Positions 17,361-53,880 of a DNA stretch of 64,000 nt are shown piece after piece; positions within the stretch are counted from its first letter, which is position 1; each line of letters opens with the position of its first letter. The DNA lies in NCBI RefSeq assembly GCF_901765095.1, contig NC_044034.1, positions 62,498,339 through 62,562,338 of the forward strand, given 5' to 3'. Under the pieces are notes generated by a model. That model did no database searches. It was not told the DNA's origin and worked only from the letters and a program-made list of their open reading frames with translations. This DNA is from Microcaecilia unicolor (lineage: Eukaryota). The translations under genes and the position numbers were made by a program.

Positions 17361-17689
17361 ATGTTTATTCAGGCAGGGCCGGTCTTAGCAAGTGCAGGGC
17401 CCTGTGCAGACCAATTTGGTGGGGCCCCATCCTAGCCCCGCCCCTGCCCTAGCCCCGCCCCCACCCCAGCTCCACCCCATTGATAAGATTATTCAATTTT
17501 TAGAAATTTTTTTATGAAATTTCAAATTAAGACAAATGAAGCTAAACTTGTACAGAAAAACTGATTGAAATAATAAGCACAATGCTATCATGAACCCCCC
17601 CCCCCGAAATTATTCAGTTCAAGTCCACTACAATTAGTAGTTCCAATTCTCATAACCCCGGGGGGTCAGAGGTTCGGACACACAGTCTC

Positions 17690-18300
17690 CTTCTCTGCAC
17701 ATATTCAGCAGACTAATAAAATCTGTTGCTTCTTTCTCTATAATATCAACAAAATTCATACTTTCCTTTCTGAGCACACTACAAGAACCCTTATCCACAC
17801 TCTTATCACCTCTCATGTAGACTATTGCAACTTGCTTCTCACAAGTCTTTTACTAAGCCATCTCTCTCCCCTTCAATCTGTTCAAAATTCTGCTGCATGA
17901 CTTATATTCCTCCAGTGTTGCTTGCTATGCTCATATTAGCCCTCTTCTCAAGTCACTTCATTGGCTCCCTATCCATTTCTGCATACAGTTAAAACTCTTC
18001 TTATTGACTTACAAGTGCATTCAATCTGCAGCTCCTCAGTATCTTTCCACTCCTATATCTCCCTACACTCCTACCTGGAATTCTGTTCACTGGGTAAATC
18101 TCTCTTATCTGCGCTCTTCTCCTCCACTGCTAACTCCAGACTCTGTTCCTTTTATTTTGCTGTGCCATATGCTTGGAATAGACTTCCTAAGCCGGTACGT
18201 CAAGCTCCATTTCTGGCCGTCTTCAAATCTAGGCTAAAAGCCCACGTTTTTGATGCTGCTGCTTTTAACTCCTAACCCTTATTCACTTGTTCAGAACCCA
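17690..18300 (+). repeat. Non-LTR retrotransposon or SINE 3'-tail fragment, nested inside the hAT-like element
   Basis: The sequence translates to 'LLLTSL...PLLKSLHWLPIHFCIQLKLFLLTYKCIQSAAPQYL...FAVPYAWNRLPKPVRQAPFLAVFKSRLKAHVFDAAAFNS', which is the same conserved tail module. Confidence 0.45.
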
Positions 18301-18984
18301 TGTTTTATCATTCCCACCTTAGTAATTCCCTTATTTGTCTGTCCTAATTACATTGTAAGCTTTGTCGAGCAGGGACTATCTCTTCATGTCCAGTGTATAG
18401 TGCTGCGTACATATAATAGTGCTATAGAAATGGTAAGTAGTAGTAGTAGATGCTTTTCCTGGGCGGTGACTCCTAGTGTGGAACCTTGCATCACATAACT
18501 ATGGTTTGGGTTCCTCTTTCCCACATGCATCACTTTGCACTTGCTCACAATAAATGTCATCTGCCATTTGGATGCCCAGTCTCCCAATCTCATAAGGGCA
18601 TCTAGGAGCAAAAAGTTCAAACATAACTATACCTTCTCAAGCCTATGCACCTTCCTGAAAAAAAATGCCCAGTAACAAGGCAGTTTGTCACACTGTAGGT
18701 TAAAAAAAAAAAAGCCAAATTTAAGCGCATCATTTATTCTAGATTTCTAAAAGTGTATATTCCACCAGTCTGAGTCCACCAATGAAAAAAAAGAAAAAGA
18801 AAGCAACACCAAAAAATTGCAAATCAAAACATTTGAAGAAACAGAAAAGTCAATAGGCTAACAGCAAATTATAACTATGGTGGTATGACTGGTGGGCATA
18901 GGATCAGTGGTAATTACACAGCATTAGCCAGTTTTGTTTCAGTGAACCAAGTGCAGCTAAAAAGAACAGTGTGAAGGACTTCTG

Positions 18985-20612
18985 CTAACTAAGGCCCAGA
19001 TGATCAAAAGCCCTGCGCTGTTCCAAACAGCGCCCTAAAAATAGCGCCGGGACAGCGCAGGGCTTTTCTGCATCGATGATCAAAGATAATGCATACAAAT
19101 CTAAGCAGCGCTATTATCTTTGATTATCATGTTGACGTGCGGGAGAATTGCGCTCGAGCATGCGCTCAGCACAATCCTCCCGCACTTCTTTGACAAGTCT
19201 GGGCTGTCAAAAGCCCAAAACTGTCAGTGGCCTGCCGATCCCCCAACAAAGAGGCCACCGCCGCCGGCCAAACCGACTCCCACCCTCCCACCCAGCGATG
19301 GGGGGGGGGGCTGGAGGTCCAGTGGACCTCCGGTCTCCCCGACGACCCCCCCCATGTTCACGGAGGGCTGGAGATCCGGTGGTTCTCCAGCCCCCCCCAC
19401 GAACCCCCAGAGGACTTGGTTGCCGGCTTTAGAGAAACGCTGCCCTACCCTCCCATCTGCGACGGGGGGGGGGGGGGGGGGCTGGAGGATCGGTGGGTCT
19501 CCAGCCCCCCAAACCCCCAGAAATCGTTGTGATCCACCGGACCTCCAGCCCACCCCAACTCCTCCCCCCCCCGGCGTTCTCCACAAATCCCTGGTGGTCC
19601 ATGGTGACACTTAACCCACCCTCCTCCCTCCCTCCCGGCCCCCCTACCTTTGTTGGAGGAGGGACGCAGCCTGCATGCCTCCCTCCTCTTCCTTTCGACG
19701 CTCAGCCCCGCCCATTGCATCCTGGGATGTGCTGGGAGGGGCTACATACCATATAAGGGAGCGATTCCCTTACATGGTATGTAGCCCCCGCCCAGCGCAT
19801 CCCAGGATGCAATGGGCGGGGCTGGGCGCCGCCATTTTGAAGCGGCGTCGAAAGGAAGAGGAGGGAGGCATGCAGGCTGCGTCCCTCCTCCAACAAAAGG
19901 TAGGGGGGCCGGGAGGGAGGAGGGTGGGGTTACGTGTCATCACGGACCACCAGGGATTTGTTGAGAACGCGGGGGGGGGGAGGAGTTGGGGTGGACCTCC
20001 AGCCCCACCCCCCTTGTTGGTAGATTACAGCCCTTGGCCGGAGGTGGCCACAAGGATTTCTTGGGGTTTGGGGGGCTGGAGGCCCACCGAACGTCCAGCC
20101 CCCCCCCCCCCCGGCGCTGGTGGGAGGGTGGGACAACGCTTGGCCGGAGGCGACCACGAAGATTTCGTGGGGGGGGGGGGGGTTCAGGGGAGGGTCGGAT
20201 CGTTTGGGGGTGGGGGGGACCGGAGGTCCACCGGACCTCCTGTCCCGTGTGCTGTTGCCTTGGGGGGGAACGGGGGCCTGCCAGCATGCAACTGCATGCT
20301 GGACAGGGCTCACCATTCCTCCCCAATGATCCGCAAAACCTAACGCCAGCTTGGAGCTGGCGTTGATTTTGCTGCGGCCAGCGACCCAATCTTTGGCGCG
20401 CTGGTCGCTGATCATTGGGGATGAATGCGTTAAGCGCCAATTAGCATGCATTTGCAAGCTAATTGCGCTAGAAGCCCTGTTTAGCATGCATTTGCATGCT
20501 ATTTGCGCTGAGAGCCCTCGAGGGCTCTGATTATGGGTCGGCTGCAAACTCTGGTTCTAGTATGGCGTTAACAGCCTCTAGCGCCAGAGTTTGCTTTTGA
20601 TCATGAGGGCCT
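18985..20612. repeat. GC-rich long imperfect palindrome, an inverted duplication of about 1.6 kb centred near 19770, with a central ~55 bp-arm hairpin and termini 'CT(A/T)AGGCCC..ATGATCAAAAG'
   Basis: Segment 19560-19690 is the reverse complement of 19840-19980, for example 'ggcgttctccacaaatccctggtggtccatggtgacac' against 'gtgtcatcacggaccaccagggatttgttgagaacgc'. The central hairpin is 'ccccgcccattgcatcctgggatg..ggctacataccat ataagggagcgattccctta catggtatgtagcccccgcccagcgcatcccaggatgcaatgggcgggg'. The termini 'ctaaggcccagatgatcaaaag' at 18989 and 'cttttgatcatgagggcctaag' at 20594 are inverted. Repeated palindromic units such as 'ctggaggtccaccggacctccag' and long G and C homopolymers occur throughout. 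Confidence 0.65.
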
Positions 20613-21061
20613 AAGTGCTCATAATTTCAAGTGCATGTCCTGTGTAGCTCTGTGTGCACTGCACTGACCACACTAGGGGGTCATCAAGGCTTCCCCTTTC
20701 TCTATTATCTGTAGTTCATTGTTAGGAGGTTCTATTAAATTAGTCTTTCAGAAAGGCTGGCTGGAGTTAAAGATCAAACAGTTTAGGCAGGCCATCCTGC
20801 CTGCTTTGTGCATGCAAAGTCAGTGAAAATCAGGTAGTTGTGGATCAAAAACACCTCTGCTGCCAAGAATCTCTTTTGTTTAATGAACTCCTGTCAGTTC
20901 CCCCCCCCCCCCCACCCGGACACTTTCAGTCCCGCCTTTTACTTTAATTGCTTGCGGTCACAAATCCACCTGACCGAGAAGAAGGATTAACATATTCCCT
21001 AAGTGTCGGGATAAGCATAAAGGAATCCTGTGCCAAAGGAATGGATCCTCAGGAGCTTAGT

Positions 21062-21360
21062 CAGGATCGGGAGGCGGGGCTGGTGGTTGGGAGGCAGGGA
21101 TAGTGCTGGGCAGAGTTGTACGGTCTGTGCCAGAGCCGGTGGTGGGCAGCGGGACTGGTGGTTGGGAGGCGGGGATAGTGCTGGACAGACTTGTACGGTC
21201 TGTACCAGAGCCGGTGGTTGGGAGGCAGGGCGATGGTTGGGAGGTGAGGATAGTGCTGGGTAGACTTACACGGTCTGTGCCAGAGCCGGTGGTTGGGAGG
21301 AGGGGCAGGTGGTTGGGAGGCGGGGATAGTGCTGGGCAGACTTATACGGTCTGAGCCCTG
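21062..21360. repeat. Tandem repeat (minisatellite) with a period of about 77 bp and about 4 copies
   Basis: Unit 'ggtggttgggaggcggggatagtgctgggcagacttgtacggtctgtgccagagccggt' is repeated four times with minor variants. Confidence 0.8.
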
Positions 21361-21739
21361 AAGAGCACAGGTACAAATCAAAGTAGGGTATACACAAAAA
21401 GCAGCAAATATGAGTTATCTTGTTGGGCAGACTGGATGGACTGTGCAGGTCTTTTTCTGCCGTCATCTACTATGTTACTATGTAACAGCAATGATGCCTT
21501 AACTGAAAAGGTGAATAAATAAATGTATAGTTATGTTGATGTAAATATGCTGGGGGGGGGGGTCGTTTTGTTTTTAATTCTTCAACAGGCATTTTTCAGT
21601 GGACGATGTTCTTCTGCCACACGGTGATCGTGATCTACAGTTTAATTGCCCTGAAGAGGGGGAGGGGGAAGAGACTGCTGTGCTCCAGAGCTGGAAAAAA
21701 AGATGGGGAAGAAAAGCTAATAATCATAAATACCTGGCT

Positions 21740-22190
21740 GGCTTGCCTTTGAATGGCAGTGCAGGAGGCGCACAAACTTGCTCCAGCTGATCAGCTCCGT
21801 TCCACTTCACTTTATTTGAAGTCGACTCACTCGCATCAGGCTCACCTCTTTTCCCTTCCCGCTCAGGAAATACGTCATCAGAAGGAAGGCGGGACATTGG
21901 GCGGGAAGGGAAAAGCTGGGTGGGTGAGCCATCGCTGCCTGCAACTCTGACTGTCGGGGTTTGGGGCGTCGCTGCAAGCCTGCAGTCTGTCGGGTCCGGG
22001 GAGAGGCGGGAGCTGACAGCGAGCTCAGCGGTGAGTAGGCAGGGCATCGGACCGGAGGCAGAAGTGGAGCGGCCGAGCGGGAGCGGGATCAAATCATGAT
22101 GTGGCGGTGCAGTCTAAGCGGGGGTTGGTCGGAGAGGCAGAGTTGAGGCGCGGCGCGCGGGGCCCCCTTAAGCGCGGGGCCCTATGCAGC
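21740..22190. promoter_or_regulatory. CpG-rich promoter and 5'-exon-like segment internal to the hAT-like element; function unknown
   Basis: CpG density is high across 21740-22190, in contrast to AT-rich surroundings. The segment holds 'gaaatacgtcatcagaaggaaggcgggacattgggcggg' and a donor-like 'cagcggtgagtag'. It sits immediately inside the right TIR. Confidence 0.3.
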
Positions 22191-22795
22191 CGCCTCGGTT
22201 GCCTCTGCCTAAGACCGGCCCTGTATTCAGGCATACTGCTTCCCAGCAAGGGGCAACTTGTGCACTATTCAAGCACTATGGTAAGTGTTTGTTTTAAGTT
22301 AAACTTGTTTATTTTGCCATATCTCCAGAGAGGTATGAAATATATCCAGGTTTTATCTTCAAAATCACATAAACAATTCTGAAATAAACTTGCTATGAGT
22401 GACGAGAATGATTAGTCAAATCCACTTCCCCAAATCTTCCCACCCCAACATTCCCTTCTTCATTTTACACTTCTAAACTTTTTAACAAGGCAGTGCACGA
22501 ACATCAACATCCCCAAAAAGGGGTCCAAACTTTCAAAAATAACTTTTTAGCTATTAATTCTGCTGTTTTTGTTGACATGTACTCCATTTGCAATAATTCA
22601 TACATTTGGTTTTGCTATAACACCAGAGTCAGTAGGTAATCGGACACCCATTGTAATAGAATACAGTGCTTTGCTATCAGCACTTTATGTATAAACAGTA
22701 CATAGGGTCCTGCACCCTTGGGCAGAACCTCCATTTTGTGTAGTAAATTTATCTGTGGGTTCATATACAGCCTCACTCCAATCATGCTACTTAAA

Positions 22796-24030: not shown

Positions 24031-24214
24031 TAAAGGACGTCCTTGGCATGCGCAGAGCAGCCAGCATAACGCTTGACTCTGCTCTGCGCATGCTCCACCG
24101 GCCAATTGGCTGACTGTTTAACGATGGAATAGAGAATGCAAGTGAGCTACAACGAGCAACTCATTTACATTCCTATTCCTTGATGCATGCCTGTTCCTTA
24201 CCGATCCATGTCCA

Positions 24215-24470
24215 GCAACCCTCCTCTCCCCGCCTACCCTCCCAGCACCAGGCAGGCAGGCCTCCCTCCCAGCACCAGGCATCCCTCCCTCCCACCAAGC
24301 ACCAGGCCTCCCTCCCTCCCACCCAGCATTCAGCATCAGGCCTCCCACCCTCTCTGCCACCCAGCACCAGGCCTCCCTCCCATCCAGCATCAGGCCTCCC
24401 TCCCTCCGAGCACCAGGCTGCCCGCCCTCCCTCCCTCCTAGCACCAGGGCCCCCCCCTCCTCCGAAATTT
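24215..24470. repeat. Minisatellite with a unit of about 21-24 bp, 'cctccctcccagcaccaggc'
   Basis: There are about 10 tandem degenerate copies. They give Pro/Ser-rich pseudo-ORFs on both strands. Confidence 0.8.
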
Positions 24471-29305: not shown

Positions 29306-29707
29306 CAGGGCCGCCGAGGGGGGGGGAGCCAGGGGGGACAAAATTCCCCAGGCCCGGGCCTCCAAGGGGGGCCCGGCGCCGCAGTCCCACCCGCCCTCCG
29401 TCGTCTACCGTCTGCCACAGGGCCGGGCCCCCTGCATTGAAATCACAGCGCCTCTCACCTCTGTGTGAAAGCGCAGCAGGGCAGCAGATCGCCTCCCTTC
29501 GGGCCTCCTTCCCTCCCTTTGTCCTGCCCTCGTCTGACGTAACTTCCGCGAGGGCGGGTCACAGGGGGGGAAGGAGGCCTGAAGGGAAGCAATCTGCTGC
29601 CTGCAGCGCTTTCACATGGAGGTGAGAGACGCTGTGATTTCAATGCAGGGGGCGGGGCCCCAGGGGCAGCCTTGCCCCAGGCCCGGCCCAGTCTCTCAGC
29701 GGCCCTG
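29306..29707. mobile_element. hAT-like MITE of 402 bp with TIR 'CAGGGCCGC.GAG' and 8 bp TSD 'CCTGTACT'. The body is a GC-rich nested palindrome with an exact TGACGTAA at its centre.
   Basis: The left end is 'cctgtact|CAGGGCCGCCGAGGGGG' and the right end is 'CTCAGCGGCCCTG|cctgtact'. The internal ~70 bp arms 'ccctgcattgaaatcacagcgcctctcacctctgtgtgaaagcgcagcagggcagcagatcgcctcccttc' and 'gaagggaagcaatctgctgcctgcagcgctttcacatggaggtgagagacgctgtgatttcaatgcaggg' flank the core 'gggcctccttccc...cgtctgacgtaacttccgcgagggcggg...gggaaggaggcc'. The TIR start CAGGGCCG is shared with the 4.85 kb hAT-like element. Confidence 0.65.
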
Positions 29708-33704: not shown

Positions 33705-35071
33705 AATTTTAGAGTGCTTTATCGGGGAACTAATGCCCCCTACATTCCAAGATATTACTCATGTAGGCAAACGCTATTTAAAGAAACTAACATTGGTAAA
33801 GAGATATCCCCTATGCACATTCCTATCCCCTCCATTAAAACCTGTAAACATACATTCAGCAACATATTCATACAGATTCAATGCAATTTTGACCCTTCTT
33901 GCCCAGGTTAACAGTACCCTCAACCCTTCTATTTCCCGAGAACTCCTCCCCCTTCCCATGTAACCATTGTAAATCCAGTACAGGTCCCCTCATCCTTCCT
34001 ACCTTCCCTCCCCATTCCCCCCCAACCCTAAACTTAACCCAATCCATCTACCCAGGGAACAGACCTGGGGATGGAAGCAAAGATCACATTAAGTGCTAGG
34101 GACCCCAACCTCCAAATGCAACTGCTTATAGGCTATGTCACCATAATACACTATGTTAAAGCAACTAGTAATATATTTACTCCTGTACCACACCAACAAA
34201 TGCAACATGGATTAATCCGCATCAATCAATCTGTTGTTCAATAATGCTGATTTTGCCTCTGTTACAGTCTTGAAAGCTTGCCATTGACCTTGAATTGAAA
34301 CCCTTAATTGTGCTGGATATTGTAAAGCAAAATGAATTCTTTTATAAGAGCTGAGCAGAGAGGATGAAACTGTTGACGCTGCTTTGTGCGGGGGAGAAAT
34401 CTTGTAAAATCATCAGTATGTTGCGCCCGTCGTGCATCAGTGAGTCTCTCTGTAATTTAAACCCTCGAAGAATTTCAACTTTATGTCTGTAATTCAATAT
34501 TTTTGCCATAATTACTCTTGGTCAGTTCTGATCCTCCGATCTGCGCCCGACGCAATGTGCCCTTTCCACCACTACCGGGCCCATTGTGTCTGTAAGGGCC
34601 AATTCCTTAGCCAGCCAAGTCGCTAGGTTCCATTCAGGGAGTTTTTCTGTTAACCCCACTTTCTCCGAGGACAAGCAGGCTGCTTGTTCTCACTGATGGG
34701 TGACGTCCACGGCAGCCCCTCCAATCGGAATCTTCACTAGCAAAGTCCTTTGCTAGCCCTCGCGCGCCCGCGCGGCCGTCTTCCCGCCCGAAACCGGCTC
34801 GAGCCGGCCAGTCTTCTTTCGTCCGCACTTGGTACGGTTGTGTTTTTCGCCGTGTCGAGCCCCGGAGAGTCGACCTCGCGCGTCCTTTGTCTAATCGACG
34901 TGTTTTTTATTCGGAAAATATTAGAATTCGTTCGGGAAGTGCTCCGGAAGCCCCCTTGGGTTTCGTTTTGCCCCTTCCCGTATTTTCAGTCTTTGCCCCG
35001 GTAAGTTTTCTTTCGTCGTCGGGGTAGGCCTCTTTTCGGCCTCGGTCGAGATTTTTCTCCCTCAAAGTTTT

Positions 35072-37370
35072 TTGGTGCTCATTTTCGTCATTTTGGATTT
35101 TGATTTCGCCGGCGTGATTTTTCCGCCCATGACATCGAAGCCTTCCAGCGGCTTCAAGAAGTGCACCCAGTGCGCCCGGGTTATCTCGCTCACTGACAGG
35201 CACGCGTCGTGTCTTCAGTGTCTGGGGGCCGAGCACCGCCCTCAGGCCTGTAGTCTGTGTTCCCTTTTGCAAAGGCGGACTCAGGTAGCGAGATTGGCCC
35301 AGTGGAACGTTTTGTTCTCGGGCTCTTCGTCGGCATCGGCACCGGGGGTATCGTGTACATCGACGTCTTCAGCGTCCAGAGCTTCATCCTCGGCCGCCAG
35401 TGCATCGAGTGCATCGAGGCATCGGCCCTCTGCATCGGCGCCGAGACATCGGATAGCTGCATCGACGTCGGTGGTACCGGGACCTCGTCTGCTGATGTCG
35501 TCGGACGGTGGTGCATCGTCAGGTGAGGGCTGTCCATTCCCCTGCTGGTGGCGGTGAGCCTTCGGGTGGGTCTCCCCCTACCCTGAGGGCTCCTGCGGTA
35601 CAGCCCCCCCGAGACCGACCTCCTTCGGCCTCGGCCCCGAGGAAGCGACGGCTGGATTCTACATCCTCCTCGTCGGTACCGGGAAGCTCCGGTGACATGC
35701 TTCGTTCCAAGAAGTCGAAGAAGCATCGTCACCGGTCCCCTTCCCGTGTCGGTACCGAGAGCTCTGGGTCGCCGAGGGAGTCGGCACCCACCAGGCATCG
35801 GCACCGAGAGGACCGCTCACCCTCTGTTCAGGAGGTGTCGATGCGCTCCACTCTGGACAGCCCGGAACAGCCTCCACGCCCGGAACAGGTTCTGACGTCG
35901 ACGCCTGCATCAACCTCCATGCCTTTCTCTGCAGCCGCTCTGAACGAGAGCCTCCGGGCCGTTCTCCCAGAGATTCTGGGAGAGCTGTTGCGCCCTACCC
36001 CTCCGGTACCGGCGGTGCTTGCGCCACCGGTACCGTCGAGCGTGGCGCCGGCTGGCCCATCGCCCGAGGTGAGGTCTCCGGCGTTGGTGCCGCGTGCGGT
36101 GCCGGCTGCCGTCGCCTCCCAGGAGGGCTCCCCGACTACGTCGGCGGAGGGAGCTTCGCCGATGCGGGCGAGGGAGTCTACCTCTCGACGCCCCCATCGT
36201 GGACGTGGCTCCACGGAGTCGAGTCGGGCACGGTTGCAGACACAGGTCCGTGAACTTGTGTCTGACACCGAGGGTGAGGCCTCGTGGGAAGAGGAAGAAG
36301 ACCCCAGATATTTCTCTGACGAGGAGTCTGAGGGTCTTCCTTCCGATCCTACTCCCTCTCCTGAAAGACAGCTTTCTCCTCCTGAGAGTCTGTCTTTCGC
36401 TTCCTTTGTCCGGGAGATGTCTACGGCCATCCCCTTCCCGGTGGTTGTGGAGGACGAGCCCAGGGCTGAAATGTTTGAGCTCCTGGACTATCCTTCTCCA
36501 CCTAAGGAAGCGTCCACTGTTCCCTTGCACCATGTCCTGAAAAAGACATTGCTTGCGAACTGGACAAAACCATTAACTAACCCCCACATCCCCAAGAAGA
36601 TCGAGTCCCAGTACCGGATCCATGGGGACCCAGATCTGATGCGCACTCAGTTGCCTCATGATTCTGGAGTTGTGGATCTGGCCCTAAAGAAGGCTAAGAG
36701 TTCTAGGGAGCATGCTTCGGCGCCCCCGGGCAAGGACTCTAGAACCTTAGACTCCTTTGGGAGGAAGGCCTACCATTCTTCTATGCTCGTGGCCAAAATT
36801 CAGTCTTACCAGCTCTACACGAGCATACACATGCGGAACAATGTGCGGCAGTTGGCGGGCTTGGTTGATGCTCTCCCCCCTGAGCAAGCCAAACCTTTTC
36901 AGGAGGTGGTCAGGCAGCTGAAGGCGTGCAGAAAATTCCTGGCCAGAGGGGTGTATGACACCTTTGATGTTGCGTCCAGGGCCGCTGCTCAAGGTGTGGT
37001 GATGCGCAGGCTCTCATGGCTGCGTGCCTCCGACCTGGAGAATAGAATCCAGCAGCGGATTGCGGACTCGCCTTGCCGTGCAGATAACATTTTTGGAGAG
37101 AAAGTCGAGCAGGTGGTAGAGCAGCTCCACCAGCGGGACACCGCATTCGACAAGTTCTCCCGCCGGCAGCCTTCAGCTTCTACCTCTACAGGTAGAAGAT
37201 TTTTCGGGGGAAGGAAGACTGTTCCCTACTCTTCTGGCAAGCGTAGGTACAATCCTCCTTCTCGACAGCCTGCGGCCCAGGCTAAGCCCCAGCGCGCTCG
37301 CTCTCGTCAGCAGCGTGCGACTCAGCAAGGCCCCTCGGCTCCCCAGCAAAAGCAAGGGACGAGCTTTTGA
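35072..37370 (+). CDS. DIRS ORF1, gag-like, with an N-terminal CxxC...CxxC zinc-finger-like segment and a Ser/Pro/Arg-rich region
   Basis: ORF 35508-37370 of 620 aa is preceded in a neighbouring frame by 35072-35557 'CTQCARVISLTDRHASCLQCLGAEHRPQACSLCS'. Either a frameshift or alternative start lies near 35510, so the exact start is uncertain. The frame is continuous to a stop at 37370, which overlaps the ORF2 start as is usual for DIRS. Confidence 0.6.
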
Positions 37371-39192
37371 CTGGCTCCAGCAGAGCATAGCCGACATCCA
37401 AGTGTCAGTGCCGGGCGACCTGCCAGTCGGAGGGAGGTTGAAAGCTTTTCACCAAAGGTGGCCTCTCATAACCTCCGATCAGTGGGTTCTGCAAATAGTC
37501 CGGCAAGGATACACCCTCAATTTGGCCTCAAAACCTCCAAATTGTCCACCGGGAGCTCAGTCTTACAGCTTCCAGCACAAGCAGGTACTTGCAGAGGAAC
37601 TCTCCGCCCTTCTCAGCGCCAATGCGGTCGAGCCCGTGCCATCCGGGCAAGAAGGGCTGGGATTCTATTCCAGGTACTTCCTTGTGGAAAAGAAAACAGG
37701 GGGGATGCGTCCCATCCTAGACCTAAGGGCCCTGAACAAATATCTGGTCAAAGAAAAGTTCAGGATGCTTTCCCTGGGCACCCTACTTCCCATGATTCAG
37801 GAAAACGATTGGCTATGCTCTCTGGACTTGAAGGATGCCTACACACACATCCCGATACTGCCAGCTCACAGACAGTATCTGCGATTTCAGCTGGGCACAT
37901 GTCACTTCCAGTACTGTGTGCTACCCTTTGGGCTCGCCTCTGCGCCCAGGGTGTTCACAAAGTGCTTGGCTGTAGTAGCAGCAGCACTTCGAAGGCTGGG
38001 AGTGCACGTGTTCCCATATCTCGACGATTGGCTGGTGAAGAACACGTCCGAGGCAGGAGCCCTGCAGTCCATGCAGATGACTATTCGCCTCCTGGAGCTA
38101 CTGGGGTTTGTGATAAATTACCCAAAGTCCCATCTTCTCCCAGCGCAGAGACTCGAATTCATAGGAGCTCTGCTGGATTCTCGGACGGCTCGCGCCTATC
38201 TCCCAGAGGCGAGAGCCAACAACTTGTTGTCCCTCGTCTCTCGGGTGCGAGCGTCCCAGCAGATCACAGCTCGGCAGATGTTGAGATTGCTGGGCCACAT
38301 GGCCTCCACAGTTCATGTGACTCCCATGGCCCGCCTTCACATGAGGTCTGCTCAATGGACCCTAGCTTCCCAGTGGTTTCAGGCTGCTGGGGATCTAGAA
38401 GACGTGATCCACCTGTCCACGAGTTTTCTCGAATCCCTGTATTGGTGGACGATTTGGTCCAATTTGACTCTGGGACGTCCTTTCCAAATTCCTCAGCCAC
38501 AAAAAGTGCTGACCACGGATGCGTCTCTCCTGGGATGGGGAGCTCATGTCGATGGGCTTCACACCCAAGGAAGCTGGTCCCTCCAGGAACGCGATCTACA
38601 GATCAATCTTCTGGAGTTGCGAGCGATCTGGAACGCTCTGAAGGCTTTCAGAGATCGGCTGTCCCACCAAATTATCCAAATTCAGACAGACAACCAGGTT
38701 GCCATGTACTACGTCAACAAGCAGGGGGGCACTGGATCTCGCCCCCTGTGTCAGGAAGCCGTCAGCATGTGGCTCTGGGCTCGCCGTCACGGCATGGTGC
38801 TCCAAGCCACATATCTGGCAGGCGTAAACAACAGTCTGGCCGACAGGTTGAGCAGGATTATGCAACCTCACGAGTGGTCGCTCAACTCCCGAGTGGTGCG
38901 CCAGATCTTCCAAGCGTGGGGCACCCCCTTGGTGGATCTCTTCGCATCTCGAGCCAACCACAAAGTCCCTCAGTTCTGTTCCAGGCTTCAGGCCCACGGC
39001 AGACTGGCATCGGATGCCTTCCTCCTGGATTGGGGGGAGGGCCTGCTGTATGCTTATCCTCCCATACCTCTGGTGGGGAAGACTTTGTTGAAACTCAAGC
39101 AAGACCGAGGCACCATGATTCTGATTGCTCCTTTTTGGCCGCGTCAGATCTGGTTCCCTCTTCTTCTGGAGTTATCCTCCGAAGAACCGTGA
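37315..39192 (+). CDS. DIRS ORF2, reverse transcriptase, RNase H and the post-RNH domain; 625 aa, intact
   Basis: RT motifs include 'YFLVEKKTGGMRPILDLRALNKYL', 'LDLKDAYTHIPI' and 'FPYLDDWLV'. The RNase H has 'LTTDASLLGWGAHVDG' and 'IQTDNQVAMYYVNKQGGTGSRPL'. The C-terminal segment 'LLYAYPPIPLVGKTLLKLKQDRGTMILIAPFWPRQIWFPLL' is typical of DIRS. Confidence 0.9.
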   Translation: MRLSKAPRLPSKSKGRAFDWLQQSIADIQVSVPGDLPVGGRLKAFHQRWPLITSDQWVLQIVRQGYTLNLASKPPNCPPGAQSYSFQHKQVLAEELSALLSANAVEPVPSGQEGLGFYSRYFLVEKKTGGMRPILDLRALNKYLVKEKFRMLSLGTLLPMIQENDWLCSLDLKDAYTHIPILPAHRQYLRFQLGTCHFQYCVLPFGLASAPRVFTKCLAVVAAALRRLGVHVFPYLDDWLVKNTSEAGALQSMQMTIRLLELLGFVINYPKSHLLPAQRLEFIGALLDSRTARAYLPEARANNLLSLVSRVRASQQITARQMLRLLGHMASTVHVTPMARLHMRSAQWTLASQWFQAAGDLEDVIHLSTSFLESLYWWTIWSNLTLGRPFQIPQPQKVLTTDASLLGWGAHVDGLHTQGSWSLQERDLQINLLELRAIWNALKAFRDRLSHQIIQIQTDNQVAMYYVNKQGGTGSRPLCQEAVSMWLWARRHGMVLQATYLAGVNNSLADRLSRIMQPHEWSLNSRVVRQIFQAWGTPLVDLFASRANHKVPQFCSRLQAHGRLASDAFLLDWGEGLLYAYPPIPLVGKTLLKLKQDRGTMILIAPFWPRQIWFPLLLELSSEEP

Positions 39193-40331
39193 AGATTGGA
39201 GTGTTTTCCGACCCTCATCACGCAGGACGAAGGGGCTCTTCTGCATCCCAGCCTCCGGTCCCTGGCTCTCACGGCTTGGATGTTGAGAGCGTAGACTTTG
39301 CCTCTTTGGGTCTGTCAGAGGGTGTCTCCCGCATCTTGCTTGCTTCCAGGAAAGATTCCACTAAGAGGAGTTACTTCTTTCTGTGGAGGAGGTTTGCCGT
39401 CTGGTGTGACAGCAAGGCCCTAGATCCTCGCTCTTGTCCTACACAGACCCTGCTTGAATACCTTCTGCACTTGTCTGAGTCTGGCCTCAAGACCAACTCT
39501 GTAAGGGTTCACCTTAGTGCAATCAGTGCATACCATTACCATGTGGAAGGTAAGCCGATCTCAGGACAGCCTTTAGTTGTTCGCTTCATGAGAGGTTTGC
39601 TTTTGTCAAAGCCCCCTGTCAAGCCTCCTACAGTGTCATGGGATCTCAATGTCGTTCTCACCCAGCTGATGAAACCTCCTTTTGAGCCACTGAACTCCTG
39701 CCATCTGAAGTACTTGACCTGGAAGGTCATTTTCTTGGTGGCAGTTACTTCAGCTCGTAGAGTCAGTGAGCTTCAGGCCCTGGTAGCCCAGGCCCCTTAC
39801 ACCAAATTTCATCATAACAGAGTAGTCCTCCGCACTCACCCTAAGTTCCTGCCAAAGGTCGTGTCGGAGTTCCATCTGAACCAGTCAATTGTCTTGCCAA
39901 CATTCTTTCCCCGTCCTCATTCCTGCCCTGCTGAACGTCAGCTGCACACATTGGACTGCAAGAGAGCATTGGCCTTCTATCTGGAGCGGACACAGCCCAA
40001 CAGACAGTCCGCCCAATTGTTTGTTTCTTTTGATCCCAATAGGAGGGGAGTGGCTGTGGGGAAACGCACCATATCCAATTGGCTAGCAGATTGCATTTCC
40101 TTCACTTACGCCCAGGCGGGGCTGGCTCTTGAGGGTCATGTCACGGCTCATAATGTTAGAGCCATGGCTGCGTCGGTAGCCCACTTGAAGTCAGCCTCCA
40201 TTGAAGAAATTTGCAAAGCTGCGACGTGGTCATCTGTCCACACATTCACATCTCATTACTGCCTGCAGCAGGATACCCGACGCGACAGTCGGTTCGGGCA
40301 GTCAGTTCTTCAGAACCTGTTTGGGCTTTAG
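39193..40331 (+). CDS. DIRS ORF3, tyrosine recombinase (YR), the C-terminal part of the long 37458-40331 frame
   Basis: The YR region has 'SKRSYFFLWRRFAVWCD', 'VTSARRVSELQAL' (the catalytic R box), 'GHVTAHNVRAMAAS' (the H-x-x-R box) and 'ATWSSVHTFTSHY' (the catalytic Tyr region). The exact YR start inside the overlapping frame is uncertain. Confidence 0.8.
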
Positions 40332-40861
40332 GATCCAACTCCACCCCCCGAGGGCCCTGTTTGTTCTGTTCCAGGCTGCACTCTCAGTTAGTTGGTAAAT
40401 TTTTTTAGGTCAATCTCAGTTATGTCCTCGCCGTTGCGAGGCCCAATTGACCATGGTTGTTGTTTTGAGTGAGCCTGGGGGCTAGGGATACCCCATCAGT
40501 GAGAACAAGCAGCCTGCTTGTCCTCGGAGAAAGCGAATGCTACATACCTGTAGAAGGTATTCTCCGAGGACAGCAGGCTGATTGTTCTCACAAACCCGCC
40601 CGCCTCCCCTTTGGAGTTGTGTCTTCCCTTCTCTTGTCTTGCTACATATGAAACTGGCCGGCTCGAGCCGGTTTCGGGCGGGAAGACGGCCGCGCATGCG
40701 CGCGAGGGCTAGCAAAGGACTTTGCTAGTGAAGATTCCGATTGGAGGGGCTGCCGTGGACGTCACCCATCAGTGAGAACAATCAGCCTGCTGTCCTCGGA
40801 GAATACCTTCTATAGGTATGTAGCATTCGGTATACGCAAGTTGTTCCTGTGGGAGCGGTTT

Positions 40862-46995: not shown

Positions 46996-48437
46996 TGCCA
47001 CTATCCAGCTTGTTTCCGAAAGAGAAAGACGCCCATATTTCGACCCTAATCGGGAGATGGGCGTCTTTCTCCCGTTTGCGACCAAATCGGTATAATCGAA
47101 AGCTGATTTGGGGCGTCTTCAACTGCACTCCGTTGCAGGAACGACCAAAGTTGACGGGGGCGTGTCGGAGGTGTGGTAAAGGCGGGACTGGGGCGTGGTT
47201 ATCGGCCGAGGAGAGATGGCCGCCTTCGGCCAATAATCGAAAAAAGAAAGGCGGTTTTACTGCAATTTTGGGTCACTTTTTTTGGACCCTTTTTTTTCAT
47301 GAACAAGTCCCAAAAAAGTGCCCCAACTGCCCAGATGACCACTGGAGGGAATCGGGGATGACATCCCCGGGCTCCCCCAGTGGCCACTAACCCCCTCCCA
47401 CCAAAAAAAAAGAACTTGAAAAACCTTTTTTTCCAGCCTGTATGGCAGCCTCAAATGTCATACCCAGCTCCATGACAGCAGTATGCAGGTCCCTGGAGCA
47501 ATTGTTAGTGGGTGCAGTGGACTTCACCCAGGTGGGCACAGGCCCATCTCCCCCTACCTGTTCGAACTTGTGGTGGTAAATGGGAGCCTACCAGACCGCC
47601 CCCAAAACCCACTGTACCCACATATAGGTGCTCCCCATCACCCCTTAGGGCTATGGTAATGGTGTAGAGTTGTGGGCAGTGAGTTTTGGGGGGGATTTGA
47701 GGGGCTCAGCACCCAAAGGAAGGGAGCTATGGACTTGGGAGGTATTTTACTTTCGTTTTTATGCTTTACAAGTGCCCCCTAGGGTGCCCAGTTGCTGTCC
47801 TGGCATGTGAGGGCAGTGGCGTTCCAAGGGGCGCTGACACCCGGGGCAGATCGCCGATGCGCCCCGCCCCCCCGGGTGCAGTGCCCCCCCCCCCGTGCAG
47901 CGCCCCCCCCCCCCCCGGCGAAGGGACACCCCCCCCACCCCGGTGAAAGAACCCCCCCGGTGCACGCCGCTGGTCAGCGTCGTTCGTTTCCATGCTCCCT
48001 CTGCCCCGGAACAGGTTACTTCCTGTTCTGGGGCAGAGGGAGCATGGAAACCAACGACGCTGACCGGCGCGTGGCACCCCCCCCAGCGGCGTGCACCCGG
48101 GGCAGACCGCCCCCACTGCCCCTCCTTGGTACGCCACTGTGTGAGGGGGACCAGTGCACTACAAATCCTGGCCCCTCCCACGACCCAATGCCTTGGATTT
48201 GATTGTTTTTGAGCTGGGCGCCTTCGGTTTCCATTATCGCTGAAAAACGATACTGCCCAGCTCAAATCCGCACAAATTTGATGCATTTGGCCGGCACAAA
48301 CTGTACTATCGAAAAACAAGATGGACGTACATTTTGTTCGAAAATACGGTCTGTCCCGCCTCTTCACGTACCCGTTTTCGGACATAGACACCCATGGAGA
48401 TGGGCGTTCGCGTTCGATTATGCCCCTCCACATGCTT
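46996..48437 (+). repeat. Interspersed repeat R2, copy 1, of about 1.1 kb. It has inverted termini 'cgaaagagaaagacgcccat' and 'atgggcgttcgcgttcg' and many subterminal GACGCCCAT and ATGGGCGTC motifs. The 326 bp MITE at 47814-48139 interrupts this copy.
   Basis: The copy is collinear with 49330-50392. Shared blocks include 'cgtgtcggagg', 'cagatgaccactggag.gaat.ggggatgac', 'cagcctcaaatgtcatac...cagcagtatgcaggtccctggagca', 'gtggtggtaaatg.gagcc' and the terminal 'cgattatgcccctccacat'. Confidence 0.6.
47814..48139. mobile_element. hAT-like MITE of 326 bp with TIR 'CAGTGGCG' and 8 bp TSD 'TGTGAGGG'. The body is a GC-rich palindrome with a ~45 bp-arm hairpin.
   Basis: The element reads 'catgtgaggg|CAGTGGCGttcc...ggtaCGCCACTG|tgtgaggg|ggaccagtg'. 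The central hairpin has 'ggtcagcgtcgttcgtttccatgctccctctgccccggaacagg' and 'cctgttctggggcagagggagcatggaaaccaacgacgctgacc' as its arms, with C-homopolymer-rich flanks. The R2 copy at 49330-50392 provides the empty-site comparison. Confidence 0.7.
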
Positions 48438-52119: not shown

Positions 52120-52400
52120 ACAGCACTACAACTACTACTTATCATTTCTTTAGCACTACAAGCCATACGCAGCGCTGCACACCATACACAAAAAGACAGT
52201 CCCTGCGCAAAGACCTTACAATCTGGATAAGAGAGGAGACAGACAGAACAATTAAGGGTAGGGGAATAAAGAGGTGAGGATAAAGGATAGGGCAAGTGAG
52301 CAGTGGTTAGGAGTCAAAAGCAGTGGTAAAGAGGTGGGCTTTAAGTTTGGACTTGAAAACGGCCAAAGAGGGGGCTAGACGTACAGGCTTGGGAAGATGG
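52120..52400 (+). repeat. Unclassified repeat R3, copy 1. The same family recurs at 53285-53880.
   Basis: Shared blocks are 'ctactact.atttc.ttagc.ctacaag.c.tacgcagcgctgcaca...agtccctgc.caaaga.cttacaatct' and 'gtggtta.gagtcaaaagca.tg.taaagaggtgggcttt.agt'. Confidence 0.5.
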
Positions 52401-53284: not shown

Positions 53285-53880
53285 GTTTAAGCTACTACTA
53301 TTTAGCATTTCTATAGCGCTACAAGGCGTACGCAGCGCTGCACAAACATAGAAGAAAGTCCCTGCTCAAAGAGCTTACAATCTAATAGCCAAAAAATAAA
53401 AATAAAGTAAGCAAATCAAATCAATTAATGTGAACGGGAAGGAAGAGAGGAGGGTAGGTGGAGGCGAGTGGTTACAAGTGGTTAAGAGTCAAAAGCAATG
53501 TTAAAGAGGTGGGCTTTCAGTCTAGATTTATAGGTGGCCAAGGATGGGGCAAGACGTAGGGGCTCGGGAAGTTTATTCCAGGCACAGGGTGCAGCGAGAC
53601 AGCGCGAAGTCTGGAGTTGGCAGTAGTGGAGAAGGGAACAGATAAGAAGGATTTATCCATGGAGCGGAGTGCACGGGAAGGGGTGTAGGGAAGGACGAGT
53701 GTGGAGAGATACTGGGGAGCAGCAGAGTGAGTACATTTATAGGTTAGTAGAAGAAGTTTGAACAGGATGCGAAAACGGATAGGGAGCCAGTGAAGGGTCT
53801 TGAGGAGAGGGGTAGTATGAGTAAAGCGATCCTGGCGGAAGTTGAAGATGTTTAGTAAGGTGAGGCTCTTTTTGCTTGGA
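53285..53880 (+). repeat. Unclassified repeat R3, copy 2, longer
   Basis: See the feature at 52120-52400. This copy is in the same orientation and flanks a LINE RT fragment. Confidence 0.5.

Follow-up and report, generated by a model that had tools for sequence, protein, structure and literature searches.

A 4.85-kb non-autonomous, most probably hAT-type transposon with asymmetric ends and a repeat-laden interior in Microcaecilia unicolor

Within a 64-kb stretch of the Microcaecilia unicolor genome (contig NC_044034.1, positions 62,498,339 to 62,562,338; hereafter the window), the segment at 17374-22223 is framed by terminal inverted repeats (TIRs) and a target site duplication (TSD), while most of what lies between them looks like unrelated repeats. 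This raises the question of whether the segment is a single mobile element, to which superfamily it belongs and when its interior was acquired. Here, we conclude that the segment very probably represents a single copy of a class II (cut-and-paste) transposon that is non-autonomous, with hAT as the most probable superfamily. The element inserted as a single unit into TATTCAGG, duplicating this target, and its conserved asymmetric ends, called A on the left and B on the right, mark a family that is found in several eukaryotic genomes.

Boundaries, ends and relatives of the element

The features that define the ends are the following (positions are those of the window).

17366-17373, no strand: left TSD copy TATTCAGG, read directly and the same as 22224-22231
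17374-17388, plus strand: left TIR CAGGGCCGGTCTTAG, exact match
17374-17431, plus strand: A-type end (TIR, CAAGTGCA, GGGCCC, an 18-nt spacer, GGGGCCCCA), from the nhmmer A profile
17425-17478, no strand: 17-bp unit (CCCCACCCTAGCCCCGC) repeated in tandem, 3.2 copies, immediately interior to the A end
22155-22223, minus strand: B-type end (TIR, G plus 25 nt, GGGCCCCGCGC, then …GGGGG…CGCGC), from the nhmmer B profile
22209-22223, minus strand: right TIR, the reverse complement of CAGGGCCGGTCTTAG, exact match
22224-22231, no strand: right TSD copy TATTCAGG, the same as the left copy

The element spans 4,850 bp. A preliminary description of this DNA had claimed perfect 15-bp TIRs and an 8-bp TSD; both were found, the TIRs pairing at 15/15 positions and the two TSD copies being identical and directly abutting them, although the right end, which had been set at 22222, lies one base further, at 22223. 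All 46 bases of the TIRs and TSDs (46/46) are intact. Apart from its two matches at the termini, CAGGGCCGGTCTTAG has no further match in the window with up to two mismatches. A 15-bp inverted repeat alone would be unremarkable, as approximately 0.6-0.9 pairs are expected at 10-15 kb spacing in 64 kb, but when an abutting 8-bp direct repeat is added, the calculated expectation falls to approximately 1e-5 per window. In a scan of the window for perfect TIRs of at least 10 nt with a perfect 8-bp TSD, the pair at 17374-22223 was the sole case, and second-order Markov simulations under the same criteria gave a mean of 0.07 pairs. The empty site before insertion would read …aatgttTATTCAGGcatactgc…, with one copy of TATTCAGG.

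The resemblance of the ends to those of other elements extends well into the subterminal sequence. Two nhmmer profiles were built from metagenome ends only (A from 19 ends, B from 8), with no window sequence included. The A profile matches 17374-17431(+) without gaps at E = 3.7e-13 and 45.9 bits, of which the TIR alone gives 9.8 bits, and the B profile matches 22223-22155(-), ungapped over 69 nt, at E = 1.5e-11 and 40 bits. Both window ends are approximately 77-78% identical to the profile consensus, and this similarity runs approximately 45 nt past each TIR. The element thus carries an A end on the left and a B end on the right, in inverted orientation, each matching its own profile, while neither profile found a further A- or B-like end inside 17374-22223. 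In addition, the hexamer GGGCCC occurs four times in the element, at 17397, 17422, 22160 and 22177, always within 65 bp of the tips and twice per end; the whole window holds 16 such hexamers, three of which lie in a 402-bp miniature inverted-repeat transposable element (MITE) described below. This palindromic hexamer is likely a subterminal recognition motif.

The relatives were collected from Joint Genome Institute (JGI) metagenome contigs, which were scanned for CAGGGCCGGTCTTAG followed by GGGCCC within 5-30 nt. The scan returned 53 contigs (labelled L001-L053; samples 3300001689 and 3300001913 are named among them) with approximately 27 distinct insertion sites. The preliminary description had considered that a TIR unique to this locus would speak against a transposon; instead, the TIR recurs in these 53 contigs with the same end architecture. 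Type A ends of the metagenome consist of the TIR, CAAGTGCR, GGGCCC, an 18-nt spacer and GGGGCCCCA, a layout reproduced exactly by the left end in the window, down to the unconstrained octamer and the length of the spacer. Type B ends consist of the TIR, G, approximately 25 nt and GGGCCCCGCGC…, as at the right end in the window. At least 14 independent metagenome elements of 175-2,819 bp possess a partner TIR (often CAGGGCCGGCCTTTA) and TSDs of 8 bp that are perfect or differ at one position. For example, L026 carries a 337-bp MITE with two perfect TIRs and the TSD ACCAGGTT. All complete elements run A(+)…B(-), inverted, with the same polarity as the window element, and the window and its relatives share the identical 15-bp TIR, the same GGGCCC spacing and approximately 77% identity at the ends. 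Since the TIR with A and B ends bounds many metagenome elements, the window element genuinely belongs to a transposon family.

As a control, the same pattern was applied to 596 Gb of prokaryotic genomes, where it gave a single match, no more than a rough chance estimate, to which neither end profile fits at E < 0.01. In viral contigs, the pattern gave no match. The contigs of the relatives carry eukaryote-type genes (GST, Ras, EF-hand, the GPS motif of adhesion G protein-coupled receptors, reverse transcriptase (RT)), and their observed/expected CpG ratio (CpG o/e) is 0.84-0.94, compared with 0.44 in the window. From this ratio we infer that their hosts are non-vertebrate-type genomes sequenced along with microbial communities. 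A literature search for the TIR string returned unrelated primers only.

In one of the contigs (L031, 181-649), a tandem duplication has taken in a transposon terminus: the same element end, together with an identical flank (tatcacaataac), occurs twice, with both copies oriented alike and 424 bp apart.

Interior of the element and its history

The preliminary description had reported no transposase open reading frame (ORF) and had read the segment as a non-autonomous element with unrelated repeat content. Both statements hold: with stops masked, none of the six frames of the element gave a Pfam match at E ≤ 0.1, all of its ORFs are short or of low complexity, and the interior is repeat-derived. 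The element has no transposase coding capacity and is therefore non-autonomous. For a 122-aa ORF in its CpG-rich right-end region, no homologue was found among 5.8 billion protein clusters. A gene-capturing ('Pack'-type) transposon was considered and rejected on the same grounds, namely the lack of a Pfam domain, the lack of a homologue of this ORF and the repeat-derived interior; nothing in the element points to a captured host exon.

Judged by appearance, the sequence of the element's own amounts to approximately 0.1-0.3 kb on the left and 0.35-0.7 kb on the right, and the other 3.9 kb or so are unrelated repeats. The interior contains the following features.

17924-18449, plus strand: 3' end of a dispersed retroelement, finishing in a (GTA)n tail, with two more copies in the window
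18450-18620, minus strand: RT-like fragment (…WASKWQMTF.VSKCKVMHVGK…) adjoining the tail, presumed from an ORF
18993-20611, no strand: nested palindromic GC-rich non-autonomous element of 1,619 bp with TIRs, TAA duplications and inverted arms
21069-21357, no strand: minisatellite with a period of 75-76 bp, 3.8 copies and 86% matches
21801-22223, minus strand: CpG-island-like right-end region of 423 bp, from its composition

The other copies of the retroelement piece lie at 53292-53827(-) and 52122-52396(-); they are 69% identical and share the same tail end point. The piece at 17924-18449 is probably the 3' end of a long interspersed nuclear element (LINE), or a short interspersed nuclear element derived from one, and probably extends upstream to approximately 17660. 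We take it to be L2/CR1-like, and take the upstream extension to belong to it, from C-terminal ORF2 motifs that we recognised and that Pfam did not confirm. Similarly, the RT label of 18450-18620 is our assumption from its motif, confirmed neither by Pfam, which gave no match, nor by comparison within the window, where this scrap has no similarity to the other LINE ORFs. Over 17655-18620, the LINE-type plus-strand tail abuts the scrap on the opposite strand in an odd head-to-tail inverted order, unlike usual twin-priming. By the motifs as we presume them, the scrap seems to stop at the very protein point (…QEK/DLG…) where the plus-strand part begins.

The GC-rich palindrome of 1.6 kb that had been noted earlier proved to be real and is a separate element nested at 18993-20611. 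It is bounded by TIRs (GGCCCAGATGATCAAAAGC / GGCCCTCATGATCAAAAGC) that match at 17 of 19 bp, TAA adjoins it on both sides (18990-18992 and 20612-20614), and its arms, which are 87-93% complementary in one estimate and approximately 75-93% in another, meet at a centre near 19763. No protein domain was found in it. A 3-bp TAA duplication is the signature of PIF/Harbinger elements, and the nested element displays both the 3-bp TWA duplication and the TIRs expected of them. It is like the non-autonomous elements of that superfamily in its TAA duplication, in TIRs starting with GGCCC and in being non-coding, but it is unlike them in its unusually long (1.6 kb) palindromic GC-rich foldback body. An autonomous partner for it was not seen.

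Of the two remaining features, the minisatellite had been given a period of 77 bp; the tandem repeat exists, with the slightly shorter period listed above. The CpG-rich segment claimed earlier is borne out at 21801-22223, which has 64% GC and a CpG o/e of 0.82, compared with 0.44 for the window and 0.29 for the LINE-type piece. This region holds a short hairpin around a TGACGTA motif (approximately 21839-21930). RNA genes were also considered in the 16-24 kb interval, where Rfam gave only sub-threshold, hairpin-like miRNA matches (on both strands over the right-end hairpin), and these were not accepted.

How this content came to lie between the two ends can be approached through the state of preservation of its parts. 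We lean slightly towards the reading that much of the cargo was already inside the element at its last transposition, because the TIRs and TSDs are intact and the CpGs of the B end are kept, while the interior repeats look worn. The chance that 46 bases stay intact is (1-d)^46, where d is the per-site divergence since insertion; this equals 9% at d = 0.05 and 0.8% at d = 0.10. The 46 intact bases therefore favour the reading that the element was already composite and last transposed fairly recently.

We give a somewhat less than even chance to the alternative that a short non-autonomous element (<1 kb) inserted at this site long ago and that all interior repeats nested in it later, so that there was no cargo. 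The palindromic element is bounded by TIRs and a TAA duplication of its own, as expected of an insertion into existing DNA, the relatives elsewhere are short (175-2,819 bp), and the window is extremely rich in transposable elements. These observations have to be set against the intact 46/46 bases of the TIRs and TSDs and the CpG o/e of the B end, which is far above that of the LINE piece and of the window (0.82 versus 0.29 and 0.44). Furthermore, the LINE piece is just 69% identical to its two window copies, and the RT-like scrap is without a 3' end and hence could not be a simple in-situ LINE insertion. None of these counterarguments is decisive, and a nested insertion with its own TSD could also predate the arrival of the element at this site.

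A macrotransposon, in which the A and B ends of two neighbouring elements were used jointly and the host DNA between them was carried along, appears improbable. The interior does resemble generic repeat-laden genomic DNA, and such units are known for Ac/Ds-type elements. However, the absence of internal A- or B-like ends leaves no trace of two complete elements, and A…B is the normal polarity of a single element in this family.

Superfamily assignment and proposed mechanism

The assignment to hAT is most probable and is based only on the 8-bp TSD and the CAGGG-starting 15-bp TIR. Termini of hAT elements follow the rule (T/C)A(A/G)NG, which the start CAGGG fits, and the TIR length of 15 bp falls within the hAT range of approximately 10-25 bp. 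The TSD measures 8 bp in the window element as well as in at least 14 relatives. Of the hAT-type element proposed in the preliminary description, the TSD and TIR geometry and the existence of family copies were recovered, while no transposase was found that would fix the superfamily.

Transposases of hAT elements are of the DDE type with a C-terminal dimerisation domain and often a BED finger. In the relatives, the hunt for such an enzyme covered ORFs of at least 150 aa and 150 stop-free pieces of at least 83 aa, inside or adjoining the elements. The domains met were of host type only (GST, Ras, EF-hand, GPS, RT). Among the 150 ORF pieces there was one weak Dimer_Tnp_hAT match (E = 0.002), whose position inside any of the elements was not established. 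The string SERFFSG inside the 2.8-kb element of L008 is isolated and surrounded by stop codons, and it was not accepted. Motifs resembling the C-terminal hAT dimerisation domain in L003 at approximately 4776(+) (…SVEAERAFS…) and in L040 at approximately 315(-) (…SCSVERSFS…) lie kilobases outside the elements with A and B ends. These two probably represent remnants of other hAT elements present in those hosts.

Several points weigh against the overall interpretation as a hAT transposon that carried its cargo here. An 8-bp TSD is non-exclusive, as P, Merlin and some Mutator elements also make 8-bp duplications. Known hAT target consensus sequences are nTnnnnAn (Ac/hobo group) and nnnTAnnn (Buster group); in the small sample of 13 oriented TSDs, position 2 is T in 6/13 and position 7 is A in 4/13, and no clear nTnnnnAn consensus emerges. 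In addition, no hAT transposase could be tied to the A and B ends, either in the window or in the approximately 27 related metagenome loci. An uninterrupted copy of the joined flanks, that is a paralogous empty site, was not found within the 64-kb window. Finally, the interior repeats may have nested later rather than have been carried, copy-to-copy identity being a poor clock without a family consensus.

Membership in one of the other superfamilies with 8-bp TSDs (P, Merlin or some Mutator-like elements) nevertheless has only a slim probability. It would be compatible with the lack of a transposase and with an indecisive consensus of the 13 TSDs. On the other hand, the CAGGG start of the TIR matches the hAT rule, and the TSD is exactly 8 bp throughout more than 14 elements. 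TIRs start with CATG in P elements and with GG in Merlin elements, and those of Mutator elements are usually long and start with GAG or GGG. For a P element, whose transposase has a THAP domain, the TSD length would fit, but the CATG-type start is absent from the TIR. That a chance inverted repeat is flanked by a chance direct repeat, with no mobile element involved, can be dismissed as extremely unlikely, because although 64 kb should contain by chance about one 15-bp inverted repeat spaced at no more than 15 kb, the joint expectation is approximately 1e-5 and the approximately 45 nt past each TIR match the family profiles at E of approximately 1e-11 to 1e-13.

As inferred for a non-autonomous hAT-type element, it could move only if an autonomous relative located elsewhere in the genome provided the transposase in trans. 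This transposase would recognise the 15-bp TIRs together with the subterminal motifs containing GGGCCC, would excise the element and would reinsert it across an 8-bp staggered cut.

Among the known systems closest to the element are the Ds-type hAT elements (maize Ac/Ds, animal hAT-N). It shares with them a short CAG-starting TIR, an 8-bp TSD and the lack of a transposase, as well as non-identical ends with subterminal repeated motifs, heterogeneous interiors and mobilisation in trans, which for the window element is a prediction. The window ends differ from those of Ac/Ds in having no sequence similarity to them and in their subterminal motif, which is the palindromic GGGCCC. The TIR CAGGGCCGGTCTTAG may loosely resemble the Tip100-type CAGGGGCGG… termini. 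Among hAT-derived MITEs, the metagenome relatives (175-943 bp, A and B ends, 8-bp TSD) and two MITEs in the window are classical cases. The element studied here is unlike them: with 4,850 bp it is far larger than the roughly <800 bp of a MITE, and it owes its 4.85 kb mainly to unrelated internal repeats.

A further parallel is offered by SPIN ('Space Invaders') and OposCharlie1, which are reportedly widely distributed or horizontally transferred hAT families. As with these, the family signature occurs in very different hosts, here a CpG-depleted, vertebrate-like genome and genomes that are not CpG-depleted. SPIN copies from different hosts are >90% identical over their full length. In the family of the window element, in contrast, conservation is confined to the terminal 60-70 nt (approximately 77% to the consensus) and does not reach the unrelated interiors. 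This limitation of conservation to the termini points to old, functionally constrained ends rather than to recent transfer.

Neighbouring elements and meaning of the family

Two shorter hAT-like elements lie in the same window.

29306-29707, no strand: palindromic hAT-like MITE of 402 bp with the TIR CAGGGCCGC[C/T]GAG and the 8-bp TSD CCTGTACT
47814-48139, no strand given: second, different hAT-like MITE of 326 bp, 73% GC, internally palindromic, with the TIR CAGTGGCGT[T/A]CCAAGG and the perfect 8-bp TSD TGTGAGGG

The 402-bp MITE had been proposed to form one family with the large element, as its miniature member. In this form, the proposal was not supported. The TIRs of the two overlap in the first 8 nt only, BLASTN found no similarity between MITE and element, simple local alignments remained at chance level, and neither the A nor the B profile matched the MITE. 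The pair thus falls short of the 80-80-80 rule (identity of 80% or more across a terminal or internal stretch of 80 bp or more). The halves of the MITE are inverted copies of one end, with three subterminal GGGCCC hexamers. A weak resemblance showed in a gapped co-linear alignment of each of these halves with approximately the first 350 nt of the B-end region, which scored approximately 5 standard deviations above dinucleotide shuffles and was the best of 106 natural GC-rich windows, though by a modest margin (99.5 versus 86 for the next best). The 402-bp MITE is possibly, at most, a distant relative in the same lineage. If the resemblance to the B end is real, the CpG-rich segment would be intrinsic to the B end of the lineage and not a captured host promoter.

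The next best stretch in this comparison, at 24.2-24.45 kb, was rejected as a related element, since it is a GC-rich low-complexity array. Over 24200-24450 it consists of (CCTCCCTCCCAGCACCAGG)-like low-complexity units and is open on both strands.

The rest of the window is packed with DIRS, L1-type and other LINE sequences. A DIRS-like retroelement at 34805-40660 contains RT, RNase H and a SAM-like domain of tyrosine recombinase, and its 8-bp inverted ends CGGCCAGT adjoin the palindrome GCTCGAGC. At 5-1747, a 580-aa open frame represents the C-terminal part of an L1-type ORF2 with a CxxC…H…C knuckle; its best named relative, Microcaecilia unicolor LOC115461897, is 59% identical over 21% of the query, which hints at a caecilian-like genome. 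For the caecilian Ichthyophis bannanicus, DIRS is reported to dominate the repeats and, among DNA transposons, hAT to be the most abundant superfamily, including a spike of copies that are <1% diverged (PMC8498967). The repeat content of the window matches this published caecilian repeat landscape (PMC8498967).

Taken at its broadest, the family could be a hAT lineage whose asymmetric A and B ends of approximately 60-70 nt have stayed nearly constant between vertebrate-type genomes and genomes that are not CpG-depleted (invertebrate-like). The window copy would then be a recently mobilised composite with 3.9 kb of foreign repeats and a CpG-island-like, possibly promoter-active end. We put this forward tentatively and consider it rather unlikely as a whole. 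If this lineage reading were true, it would imply either unusually strict co-evolution of transposase and ends or horizontal spread.

In itself, the element is an ordinary object, namely a non-autonomous hAT-like transposon stuffed with repeats, and poses no challenge to the understanding of DNA transposons. For annotation, it means that 4.85 kb at this locus are transposon-derived non-coding DNA, with the host element and one nested element delimited exactly. What is mildly noteworthy is the conservation of 60-70-nt asymmetric termini between very different hosts, for which constraint and horizontal spread are the competing explanations. Combined, CAGGGCCGGTCTTAG and the A and B subterminal signatures provide a family marker across very different eukaryotes, which can be used to trace an autonomous element and any ongoing mobility.

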